Source: a virus (Duplodnaviria; Caudoviricetes). Taken from it: a stretch of DNA of 37,901 nucleotides. The DNA is taken from positions 1 to 37,901 of IMG/VR virus record IMGVR_UViG_3300037722_001169. One strand, given 5' to 3'. The translations under genes and the position numbers were made by a program. The notes under the pieces were generated by a model. It worked only from the letters and a program-made list of their open reading frames with translations. It was not told the origin of the DNA and made no database searches. Of the stretch, positions 8,335-37,236 are shown one piece after another. Each line of letters begins with the position of its first letter. The stretch's first letter is position 1.

Positions 8335-8695
8335 AAGCTCGTTCGAATTGCTCGTCGACTATGACGAGACAAAGCCGGATGCGCCCGGCCTGCGGCTGTG
8401 GTCGGTCGGGCTTGTCGGCAAGCGCGCCGCGTTCACGATCGTCGACCGGGTGCGGCGCGACGTCGTGATCGCCGTCGATGCCATGCGCGACCCGGTGCGG
8501 GCGGAAATCCGCCTGGTCCTGCCCAATCGCCCGCTGTACTGGACGAAACCGCGCGTGCTGATGAACTGGGCGGCGCGGACGAAGGCGACCAAGGCCGAAA
8601 TCGAGACGGCGACAGGGCTGCGCTACGACGCGGCGGCTGACGCGGTGCTGACGCATCCGCTCGGCCTGCGCTTCCTGCAAGAGGCGCATCGCTGA
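8312..8695 (+). CDS. Hypothetical protein
   Basis: Codon usage fits; TGATG coupling to the next gene. Confidence 0.7.
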   Translation: MPTITFHKSSFELLVDYDETKPDAPGLRLWSVGLVGKRAAFTIVDRVRRDVVIAVDAMRDPVRAEIRLVLPNRPLYWTKPRVLMNWAARTKATKAEIETATGLRYDAAADAVLTHPLGLRFLQEAHR

Positions 8696-18035: not shown

Positions 18036-18057
18036 GACAGCGCCGGAGGATTATGAC

Positions 18058-19020
18058 ATGGCTCCTCCGAGCAACACACTGACTGCCTACGACGCGATAG
18101 GCAACCGCGAAGACCTCTCCGATATCATCTACGATATCAGTCCGACCGACACACCGTTCCTGAACGGCATCCCGACGACCGACGCGACGGCCGTCAACCA
18201 CGAATGGCAGACGCACGCCCTCACGGCGGCGACGGCCGACAACAAGGTCGAGGAAGGTCTCGACGCTTCTACCGACGCCTCGACGACGACGACCCGGCGC
18301 GCCAACCGGACGCAGATTTCCGACAAGGTTCCGCGCGTGTCCGGCACGCAGGAAGTCGTCAACAAGGCCGGTCGCCGGTCGGAAATGGGCTTCCAGGTCA
18401 CCAATAAGGCGCGCGAGTTGAAGCGCGATATGGAAATGCGTCTGGTCTGCAACCAGGCGAAGGTGACAGGAGCGTCCGGCACGGCTGCCGAAACGGCGGG
18501 CGTCCTGTCGTGGCTGAAGACCAACGAGTCGGTCGGCGCCGGCGGGTCCGCGCCCTCGGCGGCGGACGGCGCGCAGACCCGTACCGCGGGGATGCAGCGG
18601 GCGTTCACGGAAGCGCAGATGAAAACCGTTCTGGCGGCGTGCTTCGACAGCGGCGGCGACCCGGACATGATCATCGTCAACGGCTTCAACAAGCAGGCGA
18701 TGTCCGGGTTTACCGGCAACGCGACGCGCATGGTCGGGGCGGGCGAGGAAAAGCTGTACGCCTCGATCGACGTCTACAAGTCGGACTTCGGCGATCTTCA
18801 GGTGGTCCCCAGCCGGTTCATGGAAACCCTGACGCAAAAGGGCGACCACGCGCTGATTCTGCAGATGGACATGTGGGCGATCGCCTATCTGCGCCCGTTC
18901 CAGCTGCATGATCTGTCGAAGACCGGCGACAGCGAGCAGAAGCAGTTGCTCGCCGAGTACGCGCTCGAGGCCCGCAACGAAGCGGCTTCGGGCGTGGTCG
19001 CGGACCTCACCGTCAGCTAA
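18058..19020 (+). CDS. Major capsid protein (DUF5309/SU10-like)
   Basis: GNREDLSDIIYDISPTDTPF, HEWQT, NRTQI, ELKRDME, YKSDFG, LSKTGDSE. Confidence 0.95.
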   Translation: MAPPSNTLTAYDAIGNREDLSDIIYDISPTDTPFLNGIPTTDATAVNHEWQTHALTAATADNKVEEGLDASTDASTTTTRRANRTQISDKVPRVSGTQEVVNKAGRRSEMGFQVTNKARELKRDMEMRLVCNQAKVTGASGTAAETAGVLSWLKTNESVGAGGSAPSAADGAQTRTAGMQRAFTEAQMKTVLAACFDSGGDPDMIIVNGFNKQAMSGFTGNATRMVGAGEEKLYASIDVYKSDFGDLQVVPSRFMETLTQKGDHALILQMDMWAIAYLRPFQLHDLSKTGDSEQKQLLAEYALEARNEAASGVVADLTVS

Positions 19021-19027
19021 CCGGGCG

Positions 19028-19047
19028 GGGGAGGCCGCGGCCTCCCC
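19028..19047 (+). other. GC-rich hairpin after the capsid gene (no U-tract)
   Basis: Perfect palindrome GGGGAGGCCGCGGCCTCCCC. Confidence 0.6.
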
Positions 19048-19071
19048 GTCCCCAACATGGGAGTACGGAAC

Positions 19072-19575
19072 ATGCGTGCATTCGCTGTTCTCCTGGCGGT
19101 CCTGTTTGCCGTCAGCCCGGCTTACGCGGGGTCCAACATCAAGCAGAAGGACACCGGGGCGACGGTCTGGTCCGACCAGAACAGTATCGACGTCCCGATC
19201 GGCAGTTCCGGGCTTGTGGTCGGTATCTCCGATCTTGCCACGTCGGCGACGGTGTTCGTGGTCACGCACAAGCCCGGCCGCGTTATCAAGGCGTATGTGG
19301 TCAGGAACCGTGCGGCGGATGCAGCGTCGGATTCGTCGATTCTGACGGTGTATATCGCGAAGTTCCTAACCTCGACGACGCAGTTCACGCCGATTTCGAT
19401 CGGCGCGGAACTGACGACGGCGACGCCGCATGACGGCGCGATATCGTCGATGTCGCCGGCCTATACCGGCGTCGAGGCGAAACAGGGCAGTGTCATCGCC
19501 GTTCACACCGATGGCGGCGAGACGTGTTCGGGTACCGTCGGCTGCGAGGCCAACGTCACCATCGTCATCGAGTGA
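19072..19575 (+). CDS. Capsid-accessory-like beta protein with Sec signal peptide
   Basis: GGGAG RBS; MRAFAVLLAVLFAVSPAYA|GSN; mature part ISDLATSATVFVV...GRVIKAYVV...IAVHTDGG...NVTIVIE resembles the small proteins that follow this capsid family. Confidence 0.7.
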   Translation: MRAFAVLLAVLFAVSPAYAGSNIKQKDTGATVWSDQNSIDVPIGSSGLVVGISDLATSATVFVVTHKPGRVIKAYVVRNRAADAASDSSILTVYIAKFLTSTTQFTPISIGAELTTATPHDGAISSMSPAYTGVEAKQGSVIAVHTDGGETCSGTVGCEANVTIVIE

Positions 19576-20618
19576 TCATCGCACGTTACGGGGCGGTCCT
19601 GCTGCTATGCGGGGCCGCCCTTTCGTTCGGGTATATCGCCAACCTCAACGCAACCAAGTGGGTTGCGCTGTACTGCGCGGCACTGGCCTGTTTCCTGTGG
19701 TTCCGCCCGGCTGCGGTGCGGCCGGTGCTCGCGTTCTGCGGCTATGTCCTGCTGAGCCTGGCGTGGTCGCCGGATCCGCTGGAAGGGCTGCTGCGGTTAC
19801 AGAATTTCGCCGTGCTGGCGACCGTAGTCGTCCTGTTCGCGCGCACGGAGTTGAACGCGGGGCTGTTCGGAGCCACGGGGATCGTCGGTGCGTTCGTGCT
19901 GACGCTGGCGTTCCCCGACTATCTCGGCGGCTTCGGCAATGAGAATTTTCGCTCCGATTTCGTCGTCATCTGCCTGCCGCTGACGCTCTGTCTCGGCTGG
20001 TGGTCGCTGCCGTTCCTGGTCCTGGGGGGCGGATTTCTGCTGGTGCACGGCACGCTGGCGGTGTTCGCGGCGGCGTTTTGCGCGGCGGCGCTGGTGTGTG
20101 TCATCGCGTGGCGGCGCGGCGCGCGCTACCCGGCGCTGCTGCTGACGGCGGCGGCGGCGAACTTCGCCGTGTTCGCCGATTTCGCGTATCAGTCGTGGTG
20201 GCACCGTCTCGAACTCTACCACAACACCCTCGTCCTGTGGTTTGAACGGCCGCTGTTCGGGCACGGAGTCGGGGCCTGGGATTACGTCTACCCGAGGGTG
20301 CAGGAAGCGCATTTATGGTTCTCGACACGCACCCTGATAGACGGCCCGGCGGTAATATCCGGCGCGGCGCATTCGGACGTATTGCAACTGCTCGCCGAAT
20401 ACGGGCTGATTGGCTTCGTGCTGGCCTTTTACGTGCTTTCGGGCGTGCGCTGGCGCACGCCGGCGGGGTTGGCGCTGGCGTCCGCCATTGGTGTCGCCTG
20501 CGTTGGCTTCCCGTTGCAGACGCCGGCGGCGGCGTTGGCCGGCGCCGTCGCGCTGGGTACGTCGTTGCGTGGAGCGCGGTACTGGCTGCCCTTTGCGTTT
20601 CGGGCGGATACTGGATAG
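19572..20618 (+). CDS. O-antigen ligase / O-oligosaccharyltransferase-like (Wzy_C) membrane protein
   Basis: GTGA coupling; many hydrophobic helices; GGFGNENF, HRLELY...RPLFGHGVGAW, AHSDVLQLLAEYGLIG, GFPLQTPA. Confidence 0.85.
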   Translation: MIIARYGAVLLLCGAALSFGYIANLNATKWVALYCAALACFLWFRPAAVRPVLAFCGYVLLSLAWSPDPLEGLLRLQNFAVLATVVVLFARTELNAGLFGATGIVGAFVLTLAFPDYLGGFGNENFRSDFVVICLPLTLCLGWWSLPFLVLGGGFLLVHGTLAVFAAAFCAAALVCVIAWRRGARYPALLLTAAAANFAVFADFAYQSWWHRLELYHNTLVLWFERPLFGHGVGAWDYVYPRVQEAHLWFSTRTLIDGPAVISGAAHSDVLQLLAEYGLIGFVLAFYVLSGVRWRTPAGLALASAIGVACVGFPLQTPAAALAGAVALGTSLRGARYWLPFAFRADTG

Positions 20619-21037
20619 TAGCGGAACGTCAGTTCACCTACGCGCGCGCCTATGCCGGTGTCGATGCGGTGCTGTTCGTGCAGCACGTCAACCGGGCGAT
20701 GCAGGTCTATCGTCTGGACAACAGGTACCGGCTTCATATCGCGCTGGCGATGGCGAACCTGCTGAAATCGGGGCTGGAAGTCCGCACCGACGACCGGACC
20801 ATGGACCGGGTGCACGAAATCGCGTCGTCGGCGTCGCCGTGGTTGCCGGCGGTGCTGGTATTACGGGCCGAATATCTCATCAACGCGCAACGGTGCGGCC
20901 CCGAGCTGGACCGCATCGTCGATTATCTCAAACGGCGGGTCACGATGCAGGCGGCGTCGGGGCAGGTATGGAGGTACTATCATGAGGAATCTGCTTGCGG
21001 CAGTGCTCGTCCTCTGGGCGGGAGCGGCGCACGCTGA
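20555..21037 (+). CDS. Probable C-terminal continuation of the Wzy_C protein in the -1 frame (TM helix plus helical domain)
   Basis: GYVVAWSAVLAALCVSGGYWIVAERQF then TPR-like helices; no good independent start; boundary approximate. Confidence 0.55.
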   Translation, partial: GYVVAWSAVLAALCVSGGYWIVAERQFTYARAYAGVDAVLFVQHVNRAMQVYRLDNRYRLHIALAMANLLKSGLEVRTDDRTMDRVHEIASSASPWLPAVLVLRAEYLINAQRCGPELDRIVDYLKRRVTMQAASGQVWRYYHEESACGSARPLGGSGAR

Positions 21038-21335
21038 AGGCCCGTATACGGTCGTCACGTCGGAAGACGAGACGCTGGCGGTGACAGGTGTCACGAGCTC
21101 GGACATCCAGGGGCCGTACGACGCCATCCGCCTTGTCTGCACGGTGGATTGCCGGGTCGCGGTGCTGACGACGCCGCTGCTCGAGGTCGGCGGCGTGACG
21201 GGAACGCACCCGGCGAGCGTGCCGATCTTCCTGCCGGAGGACACGCCGTTCGAGGTAAGGCCCGGCGCCGGCCGCGTCATCGTGGTCGGCCATGGCGCCT
21301 CGGGCACTCTCAACATCCTCACCTTGTCGAAGTGA
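20982..21335 (+). CDS. Small capsid-accessory-like protein with Sec signal peptide
   Basis: GGAGG RBS; MRNLLAAVLVLWAGAAHA|EGP; IRLVCTVDC...IFLPEDTP...SGTLNILTL. Confidence 0.75.
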   Translation: MRNLLAAVLVLWAGAAHAEGPYTVVTSEDETLAVTGVTSSDIQGPYDAIRLVCTVDCRVAVLTTPLLEVGGVTGTHPASVPIFLPEDTPFEVRPGAGRVIVVGHGASGTLNILTLSK

Positions 21336-21661
21336 TGCGCGCCCTTCTCGATCAGTGGGGCGGTCTCCTCACCTATTTCGAGCAAGGCGAGCGGCCCGAC
21401 GATATCCGGGTGCGGACGTGGCAGGCGAACGATCCGTTCCTGGAACAGAACCGGCGCGAACGCAACGCCGGGCATAATCCCAAATCCGATTTCCGCAAGG
21501 TGGCGTCGATCCCGGCAGGACTGCAACTGGAGCTGATCCGTCAGCACGGCATGCGGCCGGGCGAGTTCTACCGGAGACCGGTGAAGGAACAGCTCGACTT
21601 CTGGAAGCGGATTTACATGGACCGGGACTATTCGCAGCTCCGGACGAGTGACCGGGTATGA
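21335..21661 (+). CDS. Conserved head-region phage protein
   Basis: TGATG coupling; DPFLEQNRRERN...FRKVASIP...DRDYSQLRT. Confidence 0.8.
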   Translation: MRALLDQWGGLLTYFEQGERPDDIRVRTWQANDPFLEQNRRERNAGHNPKSDFRKVASIPAGLQLELIRQHGMRPGEFYRRPVKEQLDFWKRIYMDRDYSQLRTSDRV

Positions 21662-22566
21662 GCATCAGCAATTACGGCGAATTGAAAACCGCCGTCGCCA
21701 ATTACCTCTCGCGTGACGACCTCGAAGACCGTATCCCCGAGTTCATCGCGCTCGCCGAGGACCGGCTGGCGGTCAAGCTCCGCATCGAGCCGACGACGCA
21801 ACACACGCCGATCATGCTCCGCGCTCCGGTGGCCATCGCGGCGTCGGAAATCGGCGGTACCGCCAATGCGATGACGTTCACCCCGGCAACGGCGGCGACG
21901 GCCTACAATCTCGGTGATTCGTACTCGTTCACCTATCCGTTCACGCAGAACGAGCTCGCCTCGACGACGACGGTCGATGTTTCCGGTCTCGGGGCCAAGG
22001 AAATCGGCTACCGAAGGGCGTGGGGCGTCAGGGAAAGCGCGCGGTCGGGGACGTTGGTCAAGGATTATCCGACGAACATCGTCTATGACACAGTGGCTTT
22101 TGTTCTGGCGCCGGCGGGCGGGTACGTCATTCCGGGCGAGATGGTCGAAATCCGGTCGGCCTATCTCGACACCACCAACAAGCGCCTCGAATACTATCCC
22201 CCTCCCGATTTCTGGAACCGGGCGGCCGTGGGCGACACGGGCGAACCGAAAATCTACACCATCGAGGGCGCTTTCTTCGTCGTCGCGCCGGTCCCCACGA
22301 AAACCTACGCAGTACGGATGACGGGGTCGCAGAGATTGTTCGACCTGTCCTCGGATACCGACGCGGGCTGGACGATGACGAATGCGGCGGGTTTGCTTCT
22401 GTACGGCGCCTTGATTGAAGCGTCCGTCTATATCGAAGACGACGGCCGCGCGCTGACGTGGGCGACGATGTACGACGACCTGCTCGACGAGCACAAGAAG
22501 GCTGACCGGTACTATCGTTACCCGAGAGGCAGGGCGATCATGCGTTCGGACGTGAAGGGCGGATAG
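21658..22566 (+). CDS. Head-tail adaptor protein with an inserted domain
   Basis: SISNYGELKTAVANYLSRDDL..RIPEFIALAE N-terminus; GEPKIYTI, LLLYGALIEA C-terminus; about 95 extra residues in the middle. Confidence 0.8.
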   Translation: MSISNYGELKTAVANYLSRDDLEDRIPEFIALAEDRLAVKLRIEPTTQHTPIMLRAPVAIAASEIGGTANAMTFTPATAATAYNLGDSYSFTYPFTQNELASTTTVDVSGLGAKEIGYRRAWGVRESARSGTLVKDYPTNIVYDTVAFVLAPAGGYVIPGEMVEIRSAYLDTTNKRLEYYPPPDFWNRAAVGDTGEPKIYTIEGAFFVVAPVPTKTYAVRMTGSQRLFDLSSDTDAGWTMTNAAGLLLYGALIEASVYIEDDGRALTWATMYDDLLDEHKKADRYYRYPRGRAIMRSDVKGG

Positions 22567-23309
22567 AAGGTCCGGGCGAACCTGTTGGCGTAATAGTGGG
22601 AAAGCATTTCCGCTGTAGGGACGAAGCGCGTCAGGAACTCCCGGTACAGACTGGCATAGGGCTTCGTGTCCGACCGGTTGGCGTCGATCCGCTCCAGACC
22701 GGGAAATATCTCGGCGAAGTGATCTTCGAGGGATTCGAAGCGGTAGACCGTGAATTTGCCGAACCGGATCGTTCCGTACCGGTCGGGGTGGTGAGCGTAA
22801 ATGTTCACTCCGTGAACGGGGATGAAGTCGCGTTCGAACCAGTCCGCGAACCCGGTCACGGGACGCGCCCGGCGGCGGTCGAGATAGCGGTGTGAACGGC
22901 GCAACGCCTCGCGGTTCTCGAATACGTATCGAAACGCATCGAGCGCGTCGTCAACGGTCGCGACGTTGAAAACCGCCAGATTCTGGAACATCGCCGAGAC
23001 CGATTGCGTCATCGGATCGCGGTAGGCCGAGATTACCTGATCCGCGTCTGAAAACGCTTCGGCGCGGTCGCATTGCGACAGCACGGAAGCGGCGTTTTCA
23101 AGATCAGCATCGGGCAGGGCACAGGTTTCCCGCAGCTCGGTAATCGTCTCGGGCGACAGGAAATGATGACGCTCGATTCTTGCCGTGGGGAAGGTTGCCC
23201 GCAGGCTTTGCGCGACGGTTTGCGAGCCGGTCTTGCCGGACATGTGAACGAGAAAGGAGGCGGCCGGTGAAACTTTCCCAGCGTCTGGCCGCTGTCCCGC
23301 TTCAGGCAA
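22518..23309 (-). CDS. Sulfotransferase-fold protein (capsular polysaccharide synthesis-like)
   Basis: HMSGKTGSQT (5'-PSB-like loop), ISAYRDPMTQSVSAMFQN (3'-PB-like), WFERD, YRFESL, NRSDTKPYASLY; start uncertain. Confidence 0.75.
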   Translation of the reverse strand: MPEAGQRPDAGKVSPAASFLVHMSGKTGSQTVAQSLRATFPTARIERHHFLSPETITELRETCALPDADLENAASVLSQCDRAEAFSDADQVISAYRDPMTQSVSAMFQNLAVFNVATVDDALDAFRYVFENREALRRSHRYLDRRRARPVTGFADWFERDFIPVHGVNIYAHHPDRYGTIRFGKFTVYRFESLEDHFAEIFPGLERIDANRSDTKPYASLYREFLTRFVPTAEMLSHYYANRFARTFYPPFTSERMIALPLG

Positions 23310-24796
23310 AGTCCCTGCCTCCGAAGACCATCGAATTTGGCCAATGGTTGCCCGATCTGCCTGCCTTGGGCAACCCCGGTGCCACGGTGGCCAACGGGGT
23401 CATCCCGGCCGCGACTTCCTACCGGCCCTTGCCCGGCCTGGCTGTTCAGTCCGGCGCGCTGACGGCGTATTGCCGGGGCGCTGCGGCAGCCAAGACCACG
23501 GCAGGAGATACCTACTTCTACTGCGGCGACGCGACCAAGCTCTATTCGCTGCGCAACGGCACGGTGACGGACGAGAGCGGAGCCACCTACACCACGGCGC
23601 TTGACAGCCTGTGGCGGTTCGTCGTGTTCGGCACGAAGATTCTGGCGACGAACTACGACGACCCCGTGCAGTCAATTACCATCGGCGGGGCAGGGACGTT
23701 CGCCGACCACTTCACCTCGACGGAAAAGCCGCAAGCGCGCTGGATCGCGGTGATCGGTAATTTCCTCGTGCTGGGAAACATCAACTCCACGGCGGATGGC
23801 GTCGTTCCCAACCGGGTCCACTGGTCGGCGGTCAACGACAGTCTCGATTTCGACCCCGATGCGGCGACGCAGTGCGATTTCCAGGATTTCCCCGATGGCG
23901 GCCATGTCCAGCAAGTGGTCGGCGGCGCCACCTATGGGCTGGTGTTCCAGGAGCGGCAGATTTCCCGGTTGACCTATGAAGGATCTCCGCTGGTCTTCCG
24001 GGTCGATCCAATCGACCGCCAGAGAGGCACGCACATTCCGACCTCTGTAATCGGGCACGGCTCGCGGGTGTACTTCGTCAACGAGGAAGGCTTCCACTTC
24101 ACCGACGGCGCGCAGACGCATCATATCGGCATGAACAGGGTCGATACGACGTTTCTCGAGCAGTTCGACCCGCAATACTGGTACCGGGTTTCGGCGGCGG
24201 TCGATCCCCGCAACAATCTCATCGTCTGGTCGTTTCCGGGTAGCAGCGGCGCGTTTCCGACCAAGCTGTATTTCTACAACTACGAAACCGACCGGTTCGC
24301 CGAAGCCGACATCGAGACGGAAATCATCGTCGCCGCCGAAACGCAGGCGCTGGACATGGACAGCACCGGCACGACGGCTGACCCCGACGAGATGGACACG
24401 GCCGGCCTGCCGTCGCTCGACAGCGCCGCGTACCAGGGCGGTCAGCTTCGTTTTGCCGCGTTCGATACCTTCCACCGGCTGTGCTATTTCACCGGGTCCA
24501 ATCTTGCAGCAGTGATGGAAACCGGCGAAGCGCAGCTCGTCAGCGACCGGCGTTCGAAGGTCAGGAAGGTGCGTTCGCTCGTCGATACCGCGAACGCCAC
24601 AATTGCGGTGGCTTCACGGGACCGGCTGGCGGATGCGGCGTCGTTCGGGTCCGCCGTGTCGATGTCCGCCATTGGAGAGCATTCGGTCCTGAATGACGGC
24701 CGCTACCATCGGTTCCGGGTTTCGATTCCCGCCGGAGAAAGCTGGACGCACGGACAGGGCGTGCAGGCGGTCTACAGCCCGACGGGGCGCAAGTAG
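23267..24796 (+). CDS. Tail stabilisation/nozzle protein (P22 gp10-like role)
   Basis: AAAGGAGG RBS; FGQWLPD, RVHWSA..D, GLVFQER, beta-propeller-like pattern; position after the adaptor. Confidence 0.8.
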   Translation: MKLSQRLAAVPLQAKSLPPKTIEFGQWLPDLPALGNPGATVANGVIPAATSYRPLPGLAVQSGALTAYCRGAAAAKTTAGDTYFYCGDATKLYSLRNGTVTDESGATYTTALDSLWRFVVFGTKILATNYDDPVQSITIGGAGTFADHFTSTEKPQARWIAVIGNFLVLGNINSTADGVVPNRVHWSAVNDSLDFDPDAATQCDFQDFPDGGHVQQVVGGATYGLVFQERQISRLTYEGSPLVFRVDPIDRQRGTHIPTSVIGHGSRVYFVNEEGFHFTDGAQTHHIGMNRVDTTFLEQFDPQYWYRVSAAVDPRNNLIVWSFPGSSGAFPTKLYFYNYETDRFAEADIETEIIVAAETQALDMDSTGTTADPDEMDTAGLPSLDSAAYQGGQLRFAAFDTFHRLCYFTGSNLAAVMETGEAQLVSDRRSKVRKVRSLVDTANATIAVASRDRLADAASFGSAVSMSAIGEHSVLNDGRYHRFRVSIPAGESWTHGQGVQAVYSPTGRK

Positions 24797-25159
24797 ATGC
24801 CCCTGGCCTCGCCCCGATCCTCGGGCCGGGCCTATGACGGGGCGCCGCTGGAATGGTCGGACGCCCGGGAATGGATGCGCCGGATCGCGGAGACCGCGAA
24901 CGGCGTGCTCGCCGGCAAGCTCAATTCGACGGGCACTTTCACCCTGACCGTGAACTCGCTGACGACGGTGGTCGACGATCCCCGCTGCGGGCCGGATTCG
25001 GTGGTTCTCTGGTGCCCGACGACGGAAACCGCCGGCGGGGAAGTGGGCATGTACGTCACCAGCCGAGGCGTCGAGACCGCCGGGATAAGGGGGTTCACCG
25101 TCAACCATGGATTCGATTCACGCAGCGACAGAACCTTCGCCTACGTCCTCATCGGCTAG
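24797..25159 (+). CDS. Small tail-associated structural protein
   Basis: Abuts the nozzle gene; NGVLAGKLNSTGTFTL...DRTFAYVLIG. Confidence 0.7.
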   Translation: MPLASPRSSGRAYDGAPLEWSDAREWMRRIAETANGVLAGKLNSTGTFTLTVNSLTTVVDDPRCGPDSVVLWCPTTETAGGEVGMYVTSRGVETAGIRGFTVNHGFDSRSDRTFAYVLIG

Positions 25160-25547
25160 GTTTACCGGCGTCCTGTCATTTCACGTCCCCGAACTCTGGC
25201 TGAAGATTCTGCCTCTGGTCGAATCCGCTCTGGAACAGGGGCATGGCGAGTATGAGGCCGAGGACATTTATCAAGCGCTGCTGTCGAGAGACATGCAGTT
25301 GTGGACGGACGGGTGTGGAATCGGGGTTACCGAGATTGTCCGCTACCCGCAGAAAAGCGTGTGCTGGGTCGTGCTCGCATCCGGCGGGCCGATGGCGGAC
25401 TGGCTGCCGCAGGTCTCCGTGATCGAGCGGTGGGCGAAGTCGAAGGGCTGCGCTGAAATCCGTGCTATTGGCCGCGCCGGCTGGGCGCGGGCCATGGAAA
25501 AATACGGCTGGCAACGGCCGTATGCGCTGGTGAGGAAAGAGCTATGA
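25107..25547 (+). CDS. GNAT-like phage protein preceding the ejection genes
   Basis: DMQLW, VTEIVRYP, IERWAKSKGC, GRAGWAR; start uncertain. Confidence 0.65.
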   Translation: MDSIHAATEPSPTSSSARFTGVLSFHVPELWLKILPLVESALEQGHGEYEAEDIYQALLSRDMQLWTDGCGIGVTEIVRYPQKSVCWVVLASGGPMADWLPQVSVIERWAKSKGCAEIRAIGRAGWARAMEKYGWQRPYALVRKEL

Positions 25548-26368
25548 GCGGTGGCGGCGGAAAAACGCAGACGACACAGCAGACGGCCAAATCCGAGCCG
25601 TGGGCGGCGCAGCAGCCGTACCTGACGCACGGGTTCGAACAGGCGCGTCAGCAGTACGATTCCGACCAGCCATCGTTCTATCCCGGCCAGACCTATACCG
25701 ATTTCGACCCGGCCACTGTTCAGGCGCTGGACATGCAGCAGAGCCGCGCGGTTGGCGGCAATCCGCTGACGACGGCGGCGCAACGCGAGGCGGGGATGAC
25801 GCTCGGCGGCGATTACCTCAGCGCCGGCAACCCGTACATGGGCGCGATGACCGACCGCATCTCGGGCGATGTCGCGCGCAACGTCAACAGCCAGTTCGGG
25901 GCCGGGGGAAGGTTCGGTTCGGGTCTTCACGCCGAAGCCATCGCGCGCGGCACCGGAGACGCGCTGGCGCCGATTCAGTTCCAGAACTACGCCGACGAGC
26001 GCGGTCGTATGCAGAACGCGATGATGGCCGCGCCGGGACTGGCGCAGCAGGACTATTTCGATATCGGTCAGTTGGCGGGCGTCGGCGCGACCCGCGAAGG
26101 CAAGGCCGGCGAGGCGCTTCAGGGCGATATCGAACGATACAATTTCGGGGAGAACATCGAACGGCTGAAACTGGCCGATTACATGGGGCTGATCCAAGGC
26201 AACTACGGCGGCGAGACGCAGAGCATGATGTCACAGCCGCTGTACCGCAACGGGCTCGCTTCCGGGCTCGGCGGCGCGGCGAGCGGGGCCGCGATGGGAA
26301 GCATGTTCGGGCCGGTCGGCATGGGGGCAGGCGCCCTTCTCGGTGGCGCCCTCGGCTATTTCGGCTAG
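25544..26368 (+). CDS. Internal virion/DNA-ejection protein
   Basis: MSGGGGKTQTTQ..EPWAAQQPYL; Gln/Ala/Gly-rich; GxxxG hydrophobic C-terminus. Confidence 0.8.
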   Translation: MSGGGGKTQTTQQTAKSEPWAAQQPYLTHGFEQARQQYDSDQPSFYPGQTYTDFDPATVQALDMQQSRAVGGNPLTTAAQREAGMTLGGDYLSAGNPYMGAMTDRISGDVARNVNSQFGAGGRFGSGLHAEAIARGTGDALAPIQFQNYADERGRMQNAMMAAPGLAQQDYFDIGQLAGVGATREGKAGEALQGDIERYNFGENIERLKLADYMGLIQGNYGGETQSMMSQPLYRNGLASGLGGAASGAAMGSMFGPVGMGAGALLGGALGYFG

Positions 26369-26380
26369 GAGGGCGCGCTG

Positions 26381-27721
26381 ATGGCCAACGGTTTCCTGTT
26401 CGGCGGCGGCGCCGGCTACACGCCGCAGGGTGGGGGGATATGGGGGAGCCAGACGGTCCCGAATCCACCTCCGACCTCATGGTGGGACCGGTTCTCGTCC
26501 GACCCCAACAACATGATGATGGCGGCGCAGGTGCTTGGGCAGCTCGGCGGCGGCTTGCTCGCCGCCGGTGCGCCGTCGACCGACCCCGGACATTTCGGCC
26601 GGACATTGGGCGCGACGATGCAAGGCATCGGCCCGCAGATGGACCGCAGCCAGTATCTGAGGAATCAGGGACGGTTGACGACGGCGAAGATCGAGGAAAT
26701 CGAGGCCCAGCGCCGTCAGGAAGCGGCGAAGGCGCAAGCCGTGCAGGGCTTGTTGGGGCAGGGGCCGCAGGCCAACACGTCGATGATGTCTGCTCCAATG
26801 GTCAACGCGCAGGGCGCGAACGTCGGCGGCGGGCCGGCGGCGAACACGCCGGCTCCGCAAGGGCTGCTCGGGGGCATGAACCCTCAGCAGCAGCAGTACA
26901 TGGGGGTGCTGGCGCAGGCGGACCCGGACGCGGCGCTGAAGATGACGGGGGAGCGGCTGTTCGCGGAGCCGAAGGATACGCCGCGGCAGGTCATCGGGAA
27001 CGATATCTACGAACGCGACCCGGCGACGAACCAATGGACGAAGGTGCTCGATACGCCGCCGGACCTGTCGCCGCGCGATCAGGCGTTCGCCGGTCTGACG
27101 CCGGCCGAACAGCGGCAGGTGCTGATGAAGCCGCAGGTGCAGATCGGCGGCGCCTACAAGCCGCAGACCGATATCGCCAAGCTGGAGGCCGACAAGAAAT
27201 ACCTGATGGACGGCGGCTACGCCAAAGAGTCGCCGCAGATCAGGGCGATCGAGCGCAAGATCGCCGAGACCGGCCGTCCGTCCGGCGAATTGATGCGCAC
27301 GCGCGAAATGGTCGAGAGCGGCCAGCGCACGATGAAACAGATCACCGATACCCTTATGCCCGACGGCAAGGTCGACCGCAACGCCATGACGAGCATGTAC
27401 GCGGCCCTCCCCGGTACGGACGGGCGAACGACGCGCTCGCAATTCGAGGAGGCTGCGGCGCTGATGCTGCGGCTGGAAACCGGTGCTGCGGCGACCGCCT
27501 CGGAAGTGCAGAACCTCTCCGACCGTTACATGCCGAAACCATGGGACAACGACGAGACGATCCGGGACAAGATACAGCGGTTCCAGAGCCGTTTCGACAG
27601 GGCCAAGGCGATTTTGGAAGGCAAGTCGGTCGAGGACTTGCCGGCCGATGAAGCGATCACCGGAGCGCCGAAGGCGAAGCCCGGACGTATTCCCCGTTTG
27701 CCGCCGCTCTCCCTTCCGTAG
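26381..27721 (+). CDS. Internal virion/DNA-ejection protein
   Basis: GGAGG RBS; GLLAAG/GLLG motifs; Gln/Met-rich; position. Confidence 0.75.
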   Translation: MANGFLFGGGAGYTPQGGGIWGSQTVPNPPPTSWWDRFSSDPNNMMMAAQVLGQLGGGLLAAGAPSTDPGHFGRTLGATMQGIGPQMDRSQYLRNQGRLTTAKIEEIEAQRRQEAAKAQAVQGLLGQGPQANTSMMSAPMVNAQGANVGGGPAANTPAPQGLLGGMNPQQQQYMGVLAQADPDAALKMTGERLFAEPKDTPRQVIGNDIYERDPATNQWTKVLDTPPDLSPRDQAFAGLTPAEQRQVLMKPQVQIGGAYKPQTDIAKLEADKKYLMDGGYAKESPQIRAIERKIAETGRPSGELMRTREMVESGQRTMKQITDTLMPDGKVDRNAMTSMYAALPGTDGRTTRSQFEEAAALMLRLETGAAATASEVQNLSDRYMPKPWDNDETIRDKIQRFQSRFDRAKAILEGKSVEDLPADEAITGAPKAKPGRIPRLPPLSLP

Positions 27722-27728
27722 GTAGCAG

Positions 27729-29816
27729 ATGACCCCTCTTGAAAAATATCGGGAACAGAATCCTCAACTCGCCGAAGTGTCCGATCAGGAATTGGCGTCT
27801 GCGTTGTATGAGGATCAGTACGCCGCCAAGATGAGCAGGCGGGATTTTTATGGAAAGCTGGGGCTTTCTGGAGAGGCCAATACCGCCGGTTTCTGGACAG
27901 GACTTAGGAAACTACCGCAATCGGTCGTGCCGTTTGGTGATGAAGCAGCGGGAGCTGGCGCTTTTCTGGGGCGCGGTACGCGCTCGTTGATCGAGGGGCG
28001 CGGTCTGGAGGGGTCCTATGAGGATGCGCTTACGGCGATGCGGCGGCGCATCGAAGAGGCCCGAGCACAGGGGCGGAATTTCTTTCAGGATTATCCGGCA
28101 GTAGCTTATCCGTTGAGCGTTGCGGCGGGCTTCGGTGTCATGGGCCCGCGCGGCGCGGCGACGGCAGGCGGCTTTGGGGCTGTTCCCTCGAATCTCCCTG
28201 AAGTGACGCGCGGTTTTTGGTCCAATGTCGGTCGCAATGTCGGGGAAGGTGCCGCTATCGGCGGGCTTTATGGCGCGGGCGCCGGAGAGGGTGGTTTCGG
28301 CGAACGGGCGAATGCAGCCGTTACCGGGGCGGCGCTTGGCGGGGGCTTCGGGGCTGCTGTTCCTGTTGGCTGGAGAGCGGGCGAAGTTGTCTGGAATCGC
28401 ATGCGGAATATGCTCGGCGTGGGCAAGGAATGGGCCTCGAAACAAGCCGCGCAGAAGGTTTTCGAGGCGCTTCAAAAGGACGGGATGTCCGTTGATGATG
28501 CGGCGAATGCGTTGCGTCAATGGCGCGATGCTGGTGCGAAACCGGCCGCACTGTTCGATATCGGCGGCCAGAACATGAGGCGGCTGGCTCGTGCGACGGC
28601 CGGGACGCCGAGCAGCAAGGCGGGGCAAATTGCCGACGAGTTTCTGTCGGCCCGGAAAGGCGCCCAAGGAGATCGCATTGCCGGAGACTTGGCAAAGTTC
28701 ATGGATGCGTCGGACTTCTTCACGATGATGGATGATGTTGTGGCGCGGCAGAAAGCGAAGGCAGCGCCTCTGTATGACAAGGCATATGCTACGCCTCTGT
28801 ATGACAATCAGACCGGGGGGGCTTTCGTTCATACCGACGAAACGAACATTCTTCAGAAGATTATGGGCCGGCCGGTCATAAAGACAGCCATTTCGCGGGC
28901 CAGAAACCTGGCGCGAAACGAGGGTTATACGCTCGGCAAGGACCTCGATGTTCGCGGCTGGGATTACGTCAAGCGTGGCCTCGATGATATGATCAATCTG
29001 GAAACAGACCCGATTACCGGGAAAATAACCAATCGCGGACGTATCTATGCTGATAATCGGCGTCTCGTTCTTGGCGAAGTCGACAAACTTTCGCCAGCCT
29101 ACAAGGAGGCGCGCGCGACATTCGCCGGCGAAGCTGACATTCTGTCAGCAATGAACATGGGTCGGAAACTGTTCTCCGGCGATGACCTTGCAATGAGTTT
29201 CGCGAACAAGAAGATTGCCGCTATGGGGCCGTCGGAAAAAGAAGCGTTCCGCGTCGGCGTTACCCAGGCAATCAAGGAAAGGGCGAGCCGTACGCCGGAT
29301 GGTGCAAACATCGTCAGGCGATTTTTTAATGACCCCAACAAGCGCGCCAGGATCGAATCCGCATTCGACGACACGAACCAGTTTCAGGCGTTTCAAGACG
29401 CGATGAAGCGGGAAATGGATCTGTATGACGCCGGGCAGTTCGTTTCGCCGAACACGGGGTCGCAAACGCAACTCAGACAGGCGGATGCGGGTGCGCTGGC
29501 CGATGATGTCATGGCCGATGTGGTTCTCGGCACGGCACAAACCGGCAGCCCGATTGCGGGGGCAACGAACGCCGGCTATCGGTTGGTCGCGCGCGGTATG
29601 CAACCAAGCGTTCAGTTTCCGGCCAAAGTGGCCGATGAAATCGCGCCGCGCATGTTCACCGGAGATTACAGCGCCAACATGGCCGCACTGGATTGGACGA
29701 GGGGCGGGCAGGCTTCTTTGGTGGAGGACGCCTTGCGGCGGTATAATGCTTACAAGCTTGGCACCTATGCACCGACGATCGGGCTGGCCCCCCATGCTGG
29801 CGGGTTAATCGACTGA
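27729..29816 (+). CDS. Large internal virion/DNA-ejection protein
   Basis: PFGDE, GAAIGGLYGAG, A.PLYDKAY, DYVKRGLDD, YKEARA.FAG, GSQT. Confidence 0.8.
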   Translation: MTPLEKYREQNPQLAEVSDQELASALYEDQYAAKMSRRDFYGKLGLSGEANTAGFWTGLRKLPQSVVPFGDEAAGAGAFLGRGTRSLIEGRGLEGSYEDALTAMRRRIEEARAQGRNFFQDYPAVAYPLSVAAGFGVMGPRGAATAGGFGAVPSNLPEVTRGFWSNVGRNVGEGAAIGGLYGAGAGEGGFGERANAAVTGAALGGGFGAAVPVGWRAGEVVWNRMRNMLGVGKEWASKQAAQKVFEALQKDGMSVDDAANALRQWRDAGAKPAALFDIGGQNMRRLARATAGTPSSKAGQIADEFLSARKGAQGDRIAGDLAKFMDASDFFTMMDDVVARQKAKAAPLYDKAYATPLYDNQTGGAFVHTDETNILQKIMGRPVIKTAISRARNLARNEGYTLGKDLDVRGWDYVKRGLDDMINLETDPITGKITNRGRIYADNRRLVLGEVDKLSPAYKEARATFAGEADILSAMNMGRKLFSGDDLAMSFANKKIAAMGPSEKEAFRVGVTQAIKERASRTPDGANIVRRFFNDPNKRARIESAFDDTNQFQAFQDAMKREMDLYDAGQFVSPNTGSQTQLRQADAGALADDVMADVVLGTAQTGSPIAGATNAGYRLVARGMQPSVQFPAKVADEIAPRMFTGDYSANMAALDWTRGGQASLVEDALRRYNAYKLGTYAPTIGLAPHAGGLID

Positions 29817-29942
29817 AAAAGGCGGTAGATTTTTAAGTATTTCTGGTCGGTCAGCCGGCTGGACCACATCATGAAACGCTGCCAAAAGGCCCGCCATTAC
29901 AAAAATCAGTGTTACGGCTATAGCCAGTCGATTGGAATTCAT
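29805..29942 (-). CDS. 45-aa single-TM peptide (not in ORF track)
   Basis: MNSNRLAIAVTLIFVMAGLLAAFHDVVQPADRPEILKNLPPFSVD; ATGA overlap with the upstream peptide. Confidence 0.5.
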   Translation of the reverse strand: MNSNRLAIAVTLIFVMAGLLAAFHDVVQPADRPEILKNLPPFSVD

Positions 29943-30013
29943 CGCACGGCCCACCAGACCAGCCCGATGACGACAGCCCCGAATATGACGGCGTACTGAA
30001 TGCGTCGCTCCAT
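29939..30013 (-). CDS. 24-aa single-TM peptide
   Basis: MERRIQYAVIFGAVVIGLVWWAVR. Confidence 0.45.
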   Translation of the reverse strand: MERRIQYAVIFGAVVIGLVWWAVR

Positions 30014-30040
30014 CCGATCAGCATAGCGGAGAATTACCGA

Positions 30041-31057
30041 ATGCGTAAGTACGCAATCGCCGCCCTGTCCGTGCTCGCGCTTGTCGGCGTGGCGTGGGCG
30101 GCCGATATCAACGACCTCGACGTCACCGACGCCTCGAACACGGCCCGGTTCCCTGAGAACATGGCGCGCTCTGCGGTTAACGACGGCCTGCGCGCGCTGG
30201 AAGGCATTATCGCGCGGGGCTGGAAGGATGCGGTCGAAGGCAACAAGGATTCGACCGGCTCGTCCAACGCCTATGCGGTCGCGGCCAACCGCACCATCAC
30301 CGCTTATTACGACGGCCTGCGGGTTGGTTTTCACGCCAGCTTCGCCAATACCTCGACGGCGTCGCTCAACTACGACAGCGTTGGCGCGAAGGAAATCATG
30401 AAGCTGCACGATCAGCAGCTTGCCGGGGGCGAAATCGAGGCCAACCAGTACGTCGAGGTCGTCTATTCGGCGACGGACGATGCGTGGCAGCTGATATCCG
30501 CCAACGCCGTCACGCCGCTCGTCAATGTCATCGAGGACACGACGCCCCAACTCGGCGGGCAGCTCGACATCAACTCTCAGAGTATTCTATGGGCGTCAGG
30601 CGTTACGACATCGGATGTATTCGACGAAGACGATCTGACATCGGACAGCGCCACGGCGCTCGCCACGCAGCAGTCGATCAAGGCGTATGTCGACGACCAG
30701 ATCTCCGCGCAATCCTATATCAGTATTTTCGAATCCCCGGAGGCCACCATTACTGCCGGCGCGGCGACGACGATCGCGCACGGGCTGGGGGCCGCCCCAC
30801 AGTGGTTCGACCTCTATCTCGTGTGCCAGGACACCGACGCCGGCTATTCGGCCGGCGACAAGCTGTGGCTTGGCGGCTACCAGACCGGCAGCTCCTCGCG
30901 CGGTGTCGGTGTCACGTTCGACGCGACCAACCTGTACGTGCGGTTCGGCTCCAACTCCGGCGATGTCTTCCGCGCGCCCAACAAATCCAGCGGGACGGAT
31001 GCGGCGCTTGACGTAACCAAGTGGACGGCGGTGTTCGTCGCCGGACGCGCCAGCTAG
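30041..31057 (+). CDS. Tail fibre protein with N-terminal Sec signal peptide
   Basis: GGAG RBS; MRKYAIAALSVLALVGVAWA|ADI; then ASN..FPENM..SAVND, GAKEI, DTTPQLGGQLD, DEDDLTSDSATALATQQSIKAYVD, AHGLGAAP fibre-type motifs. Confidence 0.8.
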   Translation: MRKYAIAALSVLALVGVAWAADINDLDVTDASNTARFPENMARSAVNDGLRALEGIIARGWKDAVEGNKDSTGSSNAYAVAANRTITAYYDGLRVGFHASFANTSTASLNYDSVGAKEIMKLHDQQLAGGEIEANQYVEVVYSATDDAWQLISANAVTPLVNVIEDTTPQLGGQLDINSQSILWASGVTTSDVFDEDDLTSDSATALATQQSIKAYVDDQISAQSYISIFESPEATITAGAATTIAHGLGAAPQWFDLYLVCQDTDAGYSAGDKLWLGGYQTGSSSRGVGVTFDATNLYVRFGSNSGDVFRAPNKSSGTDAALDVTKWTAVFVAGRAS

Positions 31058-31105
31058 ACAGAACGTCTGCCAAAGGGGAAGAAGTCCCCGGATGCCGAGG
31101 AGTAA

Positions 31106-31414
31106 TTGACGCGCACGGTCCTGCTATTCCTCCTCCTCGCCTCGCCGGTGCTGGCGCAGGAATCCCACCAGTGGATCATGGACGACACCCGCTATCGCAC
31201 GGAAGCGGGCAGTGGCTGCTGCGGCATCAGCCACTGCCGCCCGGCCGGACCGGGCGAGCTCGTGTTCACGAAGGATGGCTATCTGCACGTGCCGACGGGC
31301 ACGACGCTTCGCTACGGCAGCAAGGCGGTGTACCCGACGCGCGACCCGCAGGGGCGGGTGTTCATCTGCGTGACCGACGAGCTGGTGTGCGTGTTTCCGG
31401 GAGGCAGTACGTGA
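31106..31414 (+). CDS. Exported Cys-rich small protein
   Basis: GAGGAG RBS, TTG start; MTRTVLLFLLLASPVLA|QES; GCCGISHC...FIC...VCVFP. Confidence 0.8.
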   Translation: MTRTVLLFLLLASPVLAQESHQWIMDDTRYRTEAGSGCCGISHCRPAGPGELVFTKDGYLHVPTGTTLRYGSKAVYPTRDPQGRVFICVTDELVCVFPGGST

Positions 31415-31415
31415 A

Positions 31416-31745
31416 ATGGCGGACATGGGCGACATGTGGCCATGGCTGGCCGGCGGTGCGGGCGGCGGCGGCGCTCTCTGGAAACTATGGGACTGGATGC
31501 GCGGTATCGAAAAGGAATCACTGGCGCGGGCGCGCGAGCTCCACGTCCGGGTCAACACGGTCGAACAGATGAAGGCGGACAAGGCCGAAGTGGACAAGGA
31601 TATCGCGCGCCTCGAGGACAGGTTCGTCGCCGCGCTCGGCGATCTGCGGAACGACCTGAGAGAACACCGTACGGAAACGACGGGCCAGTTCAAGGCGCTG
31701 GGCGACAAGATCGACCGGCTGGTGAGAACCGGAGACGGGAAATGA
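31416..31745 (+). CDS. Membrane-anchored coiled-coil protein in the lysis region
   Basis: Trp/Gly-rich hydrophobic N-terminus followed by heptads. Confidence 0.7.
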   Translation: MADMGDMWPWLAGGAGGGGALWKLWDWMRGIEKESLARARELHVRVNTVEQMKADKAEVDKDIARLEDRFVAALGDLRNDLREHRTETTGQFKALGDKIDRLVRTGDGK

Positions 31746-31843
31746 CCGCGTACACGGTGCTGTCCGCCGCGATGCAGTCCATCACCGTCGGAGAAGCGAC
31801 GCTCATGGTCATGATCATGGTTTTGCTGGTGCGGCGGAAATGA
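31742..31843 (+). CDS. 33-aa hydrophobic peptide
   Basis: MTAYTVLSAAMQSITVGEATLMVMIMVLLVRRK; ATGA overlaps at both ends. Confidence 0.55.
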   Translation: MTAYTVLSAAMQSITVGEATLMVMIMVLLVRRK

Positions 31844-32337
31844 GCGGCCGCTTCGACCGCCGCATCGCCATTATCCTCGGCTGGGAAGGCGGCTACGTCA
31901 ACGACCCGCACGACAGGGGCGGGGAGACGCATTTCGGCATATCGAAGCGCCGGTACCCGATGCTCGATATCGCCGGCCTGACACTCGATGAAGCCAGGGC
32001 GATCTACAAGGCGGATTACTGGCAGCCGCTGCGCTGCGACGAACTCCCGGACGGTATCGACCTGCTGGTGCTGGACATCGGCGTTTTGCAGGGGCCTCGC
32101 GCAGCCGCGAAATGCCTCCAGAGAGCGGCGAAGGTAAAAGACGACGGTGTCATAGGCCCGGTGACTGTCGCCGCTGTACGCGCGATTACGGGGCGTCTGG
32201 CGCTATGCCGGGAGATAACGGCACGACGGTGCAAGAAATTCGCCGAGGCGCCGACCGTCGGCGTGCACGGGCTTGGCTGGTACCGGCGGGCAGTCGAGAT
32301 TCACGAGACAGCGCAATCGCTGGCGCAGAGCGGGTGA
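31840..32337 (+). CDS. Endolysin, glycoside hydrolase family 108
   Basis: EGGYVNDPHDRGGETHFGIS, IYKADYW, DGVIGPVT, GWYRR. Confidence 0.93.
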   Translation: MSGRFDRRIAIILGWEGGYVNDPHDRGGETHFGISKRRYPMLDIAGLTLDEARAIYKADYWQPLRCDELPDGIDLLVLDIGVLQGPRAAAKCLQRAAKVKDDGVIGPVTVAAVRAITGRLALCREITARRCKKFAEAPTVGVHGLGWYRRAVEIHETAQSLAQSG

Positions 32338-32392
32338 AGTGCTGCCGGACCGCCCCTCTCCCAACCCGCCTCTACAGCAAAGGGTATCGGTT

Positions 32393-32626
32393 ATGAGCCG
32401 TGTCGGCAGGCGGAAGCCCTACACGCAAATTGGTATTCGCAGGAAGACTTGCCAGCGGTGCGGAGCGCCGGCCCGATTCCAATGGAATTGCTGCGCGAAC
32501 GATAACTTGTGGGTTCCGGTCTGCGCCGCTTGTGATGTCCGGTTGAACGAACTCGCGCTGGAGTTTTTCCGCATTCCGGGCCAAAAGGCGCTTTTGCGCC
32601 GTTACCAATCCCGGCTGACCGGCTGA
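32393..32626 (+). CDS. Small zinc-finger protein inside the lysis cassette
   Basis: MSRVGRRKPY...CQRCG...QWNCCA...CAACD. Confidence 0.65.
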   Translation: MSRVGRRKPYTQIGIRRKTCQRCGAPARFQWNCCANDNLWVPVCAACDVRLNELALEFFRIPGQKALLRRYQSRLTG

Positions 32627-35859: not shown

Positions 35860-36635
35860 TATCGTTCTCCCTGTGTGGTGTCGGGGAACTCGACCCAGCG
35901 CCGGCCGTCCAGCTCGGGCGTCTCGATCTTGCGCCGGCCCTCGATCTTCTGCTTGTAAAAGAACGGCACGCCGTGCGCGGCGCATTGGTCGCGCGAAAGC
36001 CGCGCCCAATCCTCATTGAATGGACGGGCACGCGGCCCCGACTCCGCGCCGACGATCATCCAGCCGACCGCGCCTGTCCGCAGCAGCGGTGACCAGTGGA
36101 CCGGGCCGATGGCCGGCTCATAGCTGATGAAGGTCGGCCAGCCGGCGGCGTGCGCGAAGGCGAGAATATCGCCGCGTTCGTCGAGCGCGTCCTGATTCTC
36201 CATCGTCACGCCAAGCCGTACATGCTCGAATGGCGGCCGGCGCTCGGCGGCGGGCAGGAACAGCGGCCAGTTCTCCGGCCGCTTGGTCAGCAGCAGCCAG
36301 TCAAGATTCGGCGTCTCGGCGATCAGGCGCCAGAGGTCGCCGCGCCACTCCGCATCGATCGACGCATGATCGTCGAATACATCGGCCAGCGACGCGCAGA
36401 ACACGCGCCGCCGCTCGCCCGCAGCGCCCGCTGCGGTATCCCACTTGCGCGGCTGCCGCCAATTCTGTTCGCTCGTGCGCGAGCGGGCACCGCCCGGCCC
36501 CCACGTGACGCGGCCGTAGCGCCGGTCCATCATCTCCTCGGCGTAGCAGTTGCGGCAACCTTCCGAGACGCGGGTGCAGCCGATCCACGGATTGAACGTC
36601 GCGTCGGTCCATGAAATCTTGCTGTTCTCAGCCAT
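35859..36635 (-). CDS. Gp37/Gp68 (DUF5131) family protein
   Basis: SKISWTDATFNPWIGCTRVSEGCRNCYA, RVFCASLADVF, LLLTKRP, WMIVGAESG, PFFYKQ. Confidence 0.93.
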   Translation of the reverse strand: MAENSKISWTDATFNPWIGCTRVSEGCRNCYAEEMMDRRYGRVTWGPGGARSRTSEQNWRQPRKWDTAAGAAGERRRVFCASLADVFDDHASIDAEWRGDLWRLIAETPNLDWLLLTKRPENWPLFLPAAERRPPFEHVRLGVTMENQDALDERGDILAFAHAAGWPTFISYEPAIGPVHWSPLLRTGAVGWMIVGAESGPRARPFNEDWARLSRDQCAAHGVPFFYKQKIEGRRKIETPELDGRRWVEFPDTTQGER

Positions 36636-36669
36636 CTCTACTCCCCCACGAACAGGACGGGCAGGGCGG

Positions 36670-37236
36670 TCATTCGTGCTTTTCCCAACAAGGGCATTCG
36701 GTGCCGTCGTTCGGCCCCGGCGCGCCGCACACCAGACACGGCAGCGAGCGGATGAAATCCAGGTGCGCCTTGTCCTCGTGCCGGCGTGATACCTTGTGCT
36801 CCTTGTACTGACCCTTCTGTGTAACAGGGCGCGTGGGGGCGACGCGGCTAGGCCAGGCTATCTCCCGGACCTTGCGATAAACTTCACGCGCTTCCTCGAC
36901 CGTCCGAATCTCGGCGGTGTGGTATTCGTCCCTTCCCATTGCCTTGGCCAGTTCCCGGTATGCCTTTCCGCGCGACATGCGGCCGGATTTCCATAGCGGG
37001 TCGAAAACGCGGTGTATGTGCTGGTGGGCCTTCTTGATTTCGGCAGTAGGAATAACGCCGAGCGGGCGCGTGCGGTCTCGCGTCTTGTGGTGACAGCCGA
37101 CGTAGTTGCCACAGGCGTCGCATTTCCAGAACGGCAGCGACGACAGGTCCGATCGGTGCGGGTAGATTTCTGCACCGTCGGTGAGCCGCGCCGACACGGT
37201 GCGCCCGCAGCCGCAACAATAAATCTCGCGCGTCAT
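36670..37236 (-). CDS. DUF3268-like zinc-finger protein with a truncated nuclease-like C-terminal extension
   Basis: YCCGCG...EIYPHR..L...FWKCDACGNYVGCH...PLG...HRVFDPLWK...RGKAY..LA; tail HLDFIRSLPCLVCG. Confidence 0.75.
   Translation of the reverse strand: MTREIYCCGCGRTVSARLTDGAEIYPHRSDLSSLPFWKCDACGNYVGCHHKTRDRTRPLGVIPTAEIKKAHQHIHRVFDPLWKSGRMSRGKAYRELAKAMGRDEYHTAEIRTVEEAREVYRKVREIAWPSRVAPTRPVTQKGQYKEHKVSRRHEDKAHLDFIRSLPCLVCGAPGPNDGTECPCWEKHE

Follow-up and report, generated by a model that had tools for sequence, protein, structure and literature searches.

The window, by which we mean the whole 37,901-nucleotide stretch of DNA analysed here, is a virus record rated complete. Its gene content includes an SU10-type portal, capsid and adaptor, a nozzle, three ejection-type genes, a fibre-like gene and a GH108 endolysin. 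As the window also carries a GcrA-like gene, and its capsid protein matches those of phages of Bradyrhizobium, Pelagibacter, Sinorhizobium and Rhizobium, the host is presumably an alphaproteobacterium. Positions 18000–32400 are identical, with 0 differences and 0 gaps, to a Logan contig of a sediment metagenome run (X1). This run is perhaps the source sample, so the second assembly is probably of the same sample; with that reservation, no assembly error was seen behind either the fibre leader or the split ligase described below. Elsewhere, an ORF with a tandem repeat of ~17 residues occupies the left end of the record (1–270), and three leaderless, structural-looking genes lie upstream of the terminase (8695–11080), which had no Pfam or NCBIfam match and no match among the 170 loci compared. 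An opposite-strand ORF lies between the adaptor and the nozzle (22518–23309, minus strand); a Pfam search gave no match for it, and by eye it looks sulfotransferase-like.

The fibre-like gene is an ORF on the plus strand (30041–31057) that encodes 338 amino acids. A Shine-Dalgarno-like GGAG (30028–30031) stands 9 nt ahead of its ATG, and a 224-bp gap precedes the gene in the window; in several leader-bearing phages the fibre gene overlaps or abuts the last ejection gene. Residues 1–20 (30041–30100) form a predicted Sec/signal peptidase I-type leader with an Arg-Lys n-region, an uncharged hydrophobic core and A-W-A at positions −3 to −1, and both our heuristic and the starts of homologues place the cut after A20. 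The first-pass annotation had described a cleavable Sec leader, a GGAG ribosome-binding site and no Met until residue 41; the leader call held up in the comparison across genomes given below, the GGAG lies where expected, and Met occurs at residues 1, 41 and 120 only. Neither a lipobox nor a transmembrane stretch beyond the leader was found in the protein. A true start downstream of the hydrophobic stretch was rejected, since there is no Met before residue 41 and the GTG codons that lie in frame, 10 and 4 codons before the cut, both lack a Shine-Dalgarno match.

Leaders were called with our own signal-peptide heuristic rather than SignalP, using a basic n-region, an uncharged hydrophobic core, small residues at −3 and −1 and a length of 18–30 residues as sequence criteria for Sec and signal peptidase I. 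These features were found in the window leader and in 28 leaders of the fibre family, two of which are 33 residues long. The heuristic flagged four of the 59 called window genes, those starting at 19072, 20982, 30041 and 31106, and only 4 of 416 genes across 18 loci with leaderless fibres. We consider the fibre leader very probably functional.

A search returned 1,223 relatives of the fibre, and the start positions of the best 120 were compared with the predicted cut, a check that had been proposed in the first-pass annotation. In 97 of these homologues the initial Met falls on or next to the residue that aligns with A21; 17 carry leaders of their own, 2 start internally and 4 match other parts only (13 of the start classes were assigned by eye). 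The proposal that the mature N-terminus corresponds to the start of the family is thus upheld across genomes. At the DNA level, leaders were present at 8 of 80 virus loci and one locus was cut off; the remaining loci have no hydrophobic upstream frame, as judged by eye, and a stop often lies just before the Met. After reduction of the set at 85% identity, 28 leaders were readable. All 28 have Lys or Arg within the first six residues and no Asp or Glu, the −1 residue is Ala in 24, Ser in 3 and Thr in 1, and the −3 residue is A, V, L or G in every case. Mean identity is 25% for the leaders versus 63% for the first 17 mature residues, a pattern expected if the character and register of the leader are kept while its sequence is free to change. 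In 14 of 14 loci we saw no clear Shine-Dalgarno-backed start at the cut.

The window genome contains no leaderless fibre paralogue or second copy (1 match). Among the best 40 of 272 tblastn records, none was identified as a cultured phage whose copy bears a leader; both full-domain matches among those listed were examined. In Rhizobium phage RHph_Y1_10 (MN988487.1, 42573–42917; L232), the homologous frame is unannotated and a gene is annotated on the opposite strand. Five loci (L001, L002, L050, L067 and L087) encode short (~150 aa) leaderless members that end right after the conserved domain and share a hydrophobic C-terminal motif, which suggests an adapter for a separately encoded fibre.

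The mature protein begins with a conserved segment and helix (residues 21–64; 30101–30232), the region at which leaderless homologues start and the presumed particle anchor. A beta domain in common with the Pa193 gp47 tail fibre follows (residues 72–155; 30254–30505), and the rest of the chain (30506–31057) consists of a variable stalk, with a fibre motif near residues 185–222, and a C-terminal beta head containing the single Cys262. This last region is mosaic across the fibre family and matches the tail fiber protein family phrog_24210. The structural model (mean pLDDT 74) has a helix at residues 48–64, a confident beta domain at 72–155, a weaker stalk and a C-terminal beta head. While Pfam and NCBIfam searches with the fibre were without match, the family profile matched, among solved chains, the Pa193 gp47 tail fibre (E 1.2e-14) and 9efk orf22 (E 1.7e-7). 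Foldseek ranked 9b45 first (E 4.7e-5), and the best viral match is a tail fibre; no capsid spike is among the two PDB sequence matches of the fibre. The protein combines tail-fibre domains with a conserved N-terminus, a variable C-terminus and a gene within the particle operon, as podophage tail fibres do, and its identification as a tail fibre with typical fibre motifs in the first-pass annotation agrees with these sequence and fold matches. It is probable, from this evidence, that the fibre-like protein belongs to the particle.

As to where it might attach, the nozzle/hub gene (23267–24796, plus strand) encodes a segment, residues ~357–392, that is conserved at the place of the fibre attachment loop of phage Pa223, and we therefore prefer this loop as the candidate docking site. 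No other fibre gene lies between the adaptor and the nozzle. Homology favours the tail over the head; the gene position also fits the Pa223 capsid spike and, since the post-ejection gene of Pa223 encodes that spike, position does not fix the tail as the attachment site. The head-tail adaptor of the window (21658–22566) is ~90 residues longer than in many relatives, and in three loci (L206, L207 and L212) the extra adaptor part matches the fibre 72–155 domain.

A cassette of further exported and membrane proteins lies directly behind the major capsid gene (SU10_MCP; 18058–19020), all on the plus strand. Its first gene encodes SP1, a leader-bearing jelly-roll protein (19072–19575), and is followed by the N-terminal part of a membrane enzyme of the Wzy_C (O-antigen ligase/oligosaccharyltransferase) superfamily (19572–20618; PF04932 E 1.8e-8), by the C-terminal part of this ligase in another frame (20600–21037) and by SP2, a leader-bearing protein of 117 residues (20982–21335). 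The first-pass annotation had linked the fibre to two other exported genes about 9 kb away; these two, SP1 and SP2, lie ~9–11 kb upstream, and a fourth leader-bearing gene (31106–31414, plus strand), small and Cys-rich, can now be added directly behind the fibre, where it stands between the fibre and the lysis genes.

SP1 is a likely capsid cement. Its modelled fold is a jelly roll that most closely matches the BPP-1 cement (Z 8.8, rmsd 3.2, 108 aligned), with the KHP40 cement close by (Z 8.5, rmsd 4.5, 113 aligned), both tied with unrelated jelly rolls; the position of the gene after the capsid gene also fits a cement. Four ligase-free relatives carry a shorter, leaderless SP1 homologue right after the capsid gene, and one of these relatives (G036) carries a leaderless SP2 homologue as well. 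A PDB sequence search gave no match for SP1 or the ligase.

The ligase contains a Wzy_C domain above the PF04932 cut-off and 8 spans by hydropathy. It belongs to a large family, with 316 clusters at E 1e-30; 35 of the best 150 relatives are ≤430 aa, some of them probably fragments. The two parts form a single fused gene in G001, G003 and G004; the window, G005 and G010 share one split point. In G005 and G010 (L166 and L168) the second half has an ATG or TTG of its own, followed by a leader-like stretch; for the C-terminal part in the window, no start codon was seen near the overlap (20570–20620).

Small leader-bearing genes behind the fibre also occur in L090, L051 and G062, and the genes after the fibre in G001 (35994–36800; Laminin_G_3) and G003 (14653–15264) are leader-bearing. 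The corresponding protein of G010 (24170–24823) has a similar start and is leaderless, as is the G010 fibre. In L119 the gene after the fibre begins with what looks like a twin-arginine-like leader, which may indicate a second export route there. On contig C22 of G051 (10359–10703) and in G062 (39515–39859), the gene of the SP2 family lies away from the ligase; it is found upstream of the terminase and is followed by a longer gene.

The fibre leader tracks this cassette of an exported cement-like protein, a Wzy_C ligase and often a second exported protein. Among 50 virus records, taken from the 80 loci mostly by length, PF04932 was found in 5: 4 of 7 with a leader-bearing fibre versus 1 of 43 with a leaderless one. 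The three leader-bearing records that lack the ligase are fragments of 15–37% completeness, and a profile built from the phage ligases finds the same five records. Since a test of 4/4 versus 1/43 dropped the three leader-bearing fragments and no leaderless ones, we preferred the subset of 17 records with a PF17236 capsid gene, in which the ligase is present in 3/3 leader-bearing and 1/14 leaderless records (p 0.006, with no correction for kinship). One more case of leader and ligase together came from G051:C22, a phage contig within a MAG. Searching from the ligase side yielded 20 new loci, many of them near-copies, with SP1 in front of the ligase in 19 and one locus that begins inside the ligase. 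Two of these 20 records, G062 and G068, reach the fibre gene, and both fibres are leader-bearing; as both are close kin of G051, they are not independent confirmations. The gene after the fibre is likewise leader-bearing in 6 of 10 leader-bearing loci versus 1 of 41 others. G010 is a counter-example, with ligase, SP1 and SP2 present and the fibre leaderless, so the cassette does not require fibre export.

A quick tree built from 137 N-domains, 29 of them leader-bearing and 108 leaderless, requires the leader to have changed state 18 times, and well-supported branches force no fewer than 4 of these changes; as the tree is unrooted for this question, it does not distinguish gain from loss. A single clade of leader-bearing fibres was rejected by the AU test (p 1.6e-4; quick tree, 135 columns), and on the capsid tree the cassette is likewise spread over more than one clade (4 changes). 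The window fibre is placed among leaderless ones, and its nearest relatives, at 74% identity, are leaderless. It has a single cysteine in total, an odd case that would fit a recent gain of the leader. Leader-bearing N-domains have either no Cys (19) or two (10), and nine of the ten pairs occupy the same two sites, near residues 67–69 and 96; leaderless N-domains have 0 (76), 1 (29), 2 (2) or 3 (1). Of the whole mature chains with Cys, 15 of 18 leader-bearing ones have an even count versus 23 of 76 leaderless ones. The cysteine pairing has a raw p of 7.5e-5 and, with kinship counted, reduces to 4 independent pairs (p 0.5, not significant), so that the pattern is suggestive of oxidative folding at most. 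New here are the link between leader and cassette, the comparison of leader-bearing with leaderless members within one family, the leaderless counterparts of the cement-like protein, G010 as a counter-example and the test result against a single origin.

We considered several features that might mark the fibre as a substrate of the ligase. The protein does end in Ser, as the first-pass annotation had noted, but the suggested role of this residue as an acceptor for TfpO/PilO-type transferases did not stand: C-terminal Ser occurs in 3 of 29 leader-bearing and 13 of 108 leaderless fibres (contig ends truncate some of the locus proteins) and in 1 of 28 SP1 proteins, as expected by chance. N-glycan-like and D-S/T-x motifs were set aside as signs of glycosylation, their density being equal in both fibre classes. 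The Ser plus Thr content is 0.205 in leader-bearing versus 0.201 in leaderless fibres (p 0.04), a small difference. One of four ligases matched TfpM faintly (E 7e-4; 19 bits, the cut-off being 600), one of 20 ligase relatives gave a weak, sub-threshold match to the PglL-type domain Wzy_C_2, and no named transferase matched the ligase above threshold. SP1, not the fibre, is the most constant neighbour of the ligase. Glycosylation of the fibre by the phage ligase is, on this sequence evidence, a possibility that we hold to be doubtful.

The general view is that folding and assembly of tail fibres take place in the cytoplasm and, to our knowledge, that tailed-phage particles are put together wholly there. 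For the window fibre we favour, with some reserve, a route in which it is exported and then docked on the particle at lysis. The fibre would be made late, exported by Sec and cut after residue 20, and the mature chain would fold oxidatively and trimerise in the host periplasm. Docking on finished particles would follow once the inner membrane fails at lysis, most likely at the nozzle loop and possibly at a capsid site. The purpose of export may be, as a weaker suggestion, that outer particle proteins meet the phage ligase and receive lipid-linked glycans of the host from it; among candidate acceptors the cement-like protein is the more constant, and the fibre would be optional. More tentatively still, and with less expectation that it holds in full, we propose that a widespread group of podophages, likely of Alphaproteobacteria, makes the outer layer of the particle in the periplasm, where Sec-exported cement, fibre and accessory proteins would receive lipid-linked glycans of the host from a phage Wzy_C transferase before being added to DNA-filled particles at lysis, and that incoming fibre genes are repeatedly recruited by gain of a leader. 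If this is true, the particle would leave coated in the surface sugar of its host.

A different account would keep the exported protein off the particle. It would be a surface factor or decoy, a receptor binder of fibre origin with which the infected cell or lysogen blocks superinfection; the ligase would alter host LPS (serotype conversion), and the particle would rely on other fibres. Phage Wzy_C genes are indeed known from lysogenic conversion, in D3 and VarioGold (PMC9658991, accessible part), the fibre gene stands behind the 224-bp gap, the three leaderless genes at 8695–11080 might supply appendages, and integrase-looking genes were seen, by eye only, in G003 and G005. A lysogenic-conversion cluster would lie apart from and opposite to the late operon, and the VarioGold cluster does run opposite to the late genes according to the accessible part of PMC9658991, whereas the cassette genes here are on the same strand, in line with capsid and tail genes and often overlapping them. 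Moreover, conservation among the leader-bearing copies is highest in the presumed anchor segment, the fibre, SP1 and SP2 genes with a leader take the positions of their leaderless counterparts, the genome has no second fibre copy, and a weak promoter scan of the gap found no sigma-70-like site. We judge the decoy improbable, and less likely than a particle protein. The same low expectation applies to an exported capsid spike, or head fibre, in place of a tail fibre. The gene at the post-ejection position in Pa223 encodes a trimeric capsid spike held by residues 2–41, as far as the accessible part of its description goes, and with a cement-like SP1 the export may concern the head surface. The sequence and fold matches nevertheless go to tail fibres, with no spike among the two PDB sequence matches, and the nozzle keeps its fibre-loop-like segment with no other fibre gene between adaptor and nozzle.

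The leader might also be uncut or unused, so that it tethers the fibre as a membrane anchor, or an internal start gives a cytoplasmic fibre. The two in-frame GTG codons just ahead of the cut would allow the latter, but they have no Shine-Dalgarno match and none of the 14 loci has a clear Shine-Dalgarno-backed start at the cut; against an uncut leader, all 28 leaders, divergent as they are, keep the −1 (A/S/T) and −3 (A/V/L/G) residues in register with the point where the family starts. This we consider very unlikely. Finally, export may serve oxidative folding, or may keep a sticky receptor binder out of the cytoplasm, with the ligase acting on SP1/SP2 or host LPS and not on the fibre. This account overlaps with the route favoured above and differs from it in the glycan-transfer step only. 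The recurrent Cys pair in 9 of 29 leader-bearing rows speaks for such folding, and G010, which keeps its ligase with a leaderless fibre, and the lack of enrichment of the sequon-like motifs tested speak for a ligase that does not act on the fibre. On the other hand, none of the records that cover the capsid region showed a leader-bearing fibre without the ligase, Cys is absent from 19 of 29 leader-bearing N-domains and the window fibre has a single one. It deserves consideration as a minority view, and we treat both it and the capsid site as variants of the main reading, export of a particle protein.

The nearest known relatives of the fibre are tail fibres. Pa193 gp47 (PDB 9b45), from a Pseudomonas phage, has the beta domain in common with the window fibre, and gp22 of the cultured Paracoccus phage KLEP18-1, annotated as a putative tail fibre, is homologous over residues 24–155 (98% probability, E 4e-14). 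The latter gene also follows three ejection-type genes, the same place as in the window, but gp22 has no leader, and the C-terminal halves of both proteins differ from that of the window fibre. Particles of Pa223 (Bruynoghevirus) and SU10 have a capsid, adaptor and nozzle homologous to those of the window; the Pa223 capsid protein is probably the nearest solved one, and structures 9ny2 and 9nwi appear, from their chain lengths, to belong to Pa223. In that phage the fibre gene precedes the hub gene and the capsid spike gene follows the ejection genes, and the accessible part of its description mentions neither export nor a ligase (bioRxiv 10.1101/2025.06.11.659172).

The arrangement of the cassette resembles the pilA-tfpO, PglL and TfpM pairs, in which a Wzy_C enzyme is encoded directly behind an exported protein, as here. 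O-oligosaccharyltransferase acceptors are periplasmic. The window differs from these pairs in that there is no conserved C-terminal Ser and the acceptors would be particle proteins. A phage-encoded Wzy_C enzyme is likewise found among the serotype-converting genes of D3, phi297 and VarioGold. The accessible part of the VarioGold report describes a leader-bearing neighbour of its Wzy_C gene (PMC9658991) and a cluster opposite to the late genes, in contrast to the window cluster, which lies inside the capsid operon with homologues of particle proteins as neighbours. Annotation pipelines would label leader-bearing fibre genes as secreted host-like proteins and miss their role in the particle. Mycobacteriophage glycosyltransferases reportedly act on leaderless proteins in the cytoplasm, with no export step. 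The glycans are put on capsid and tail proteins (Freeman et al. 2023, as cited in the accessible part of PMC10877033). A phage Wzy_C enzyme that glycosylates proteins and has small, defined acceptors would be of interest to glycoengineering.

With regard to export itself, no Sec-exported tailed-phage fibre was found in the titles and abstracts searched, most subscription papers being beyond reach. Coat proteins of filamentous phages are Sec-processed and have signal peptides, stay in the membrane and assemble during extrusion, while the proposal here concerns a tailed, lytic particle with soluble exported parts. The P22 tailspike is an appendage that can be added to finished particles. The native tailspike is without disulfides, according to the accessible part of PMC3357383. 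If a fibre has to cross the inner membrane first, particle assembly would involve a second compartment and be completed only at lysis, and export would open particle proteins to disulfide formation and lipid-linked glycan transfer. The difference between a leader-bearing and a leaderless fibre amounts to only ~20 starting residues; compared with the systems above, the component parts are of known kinds and the assembly route that they imply is not.
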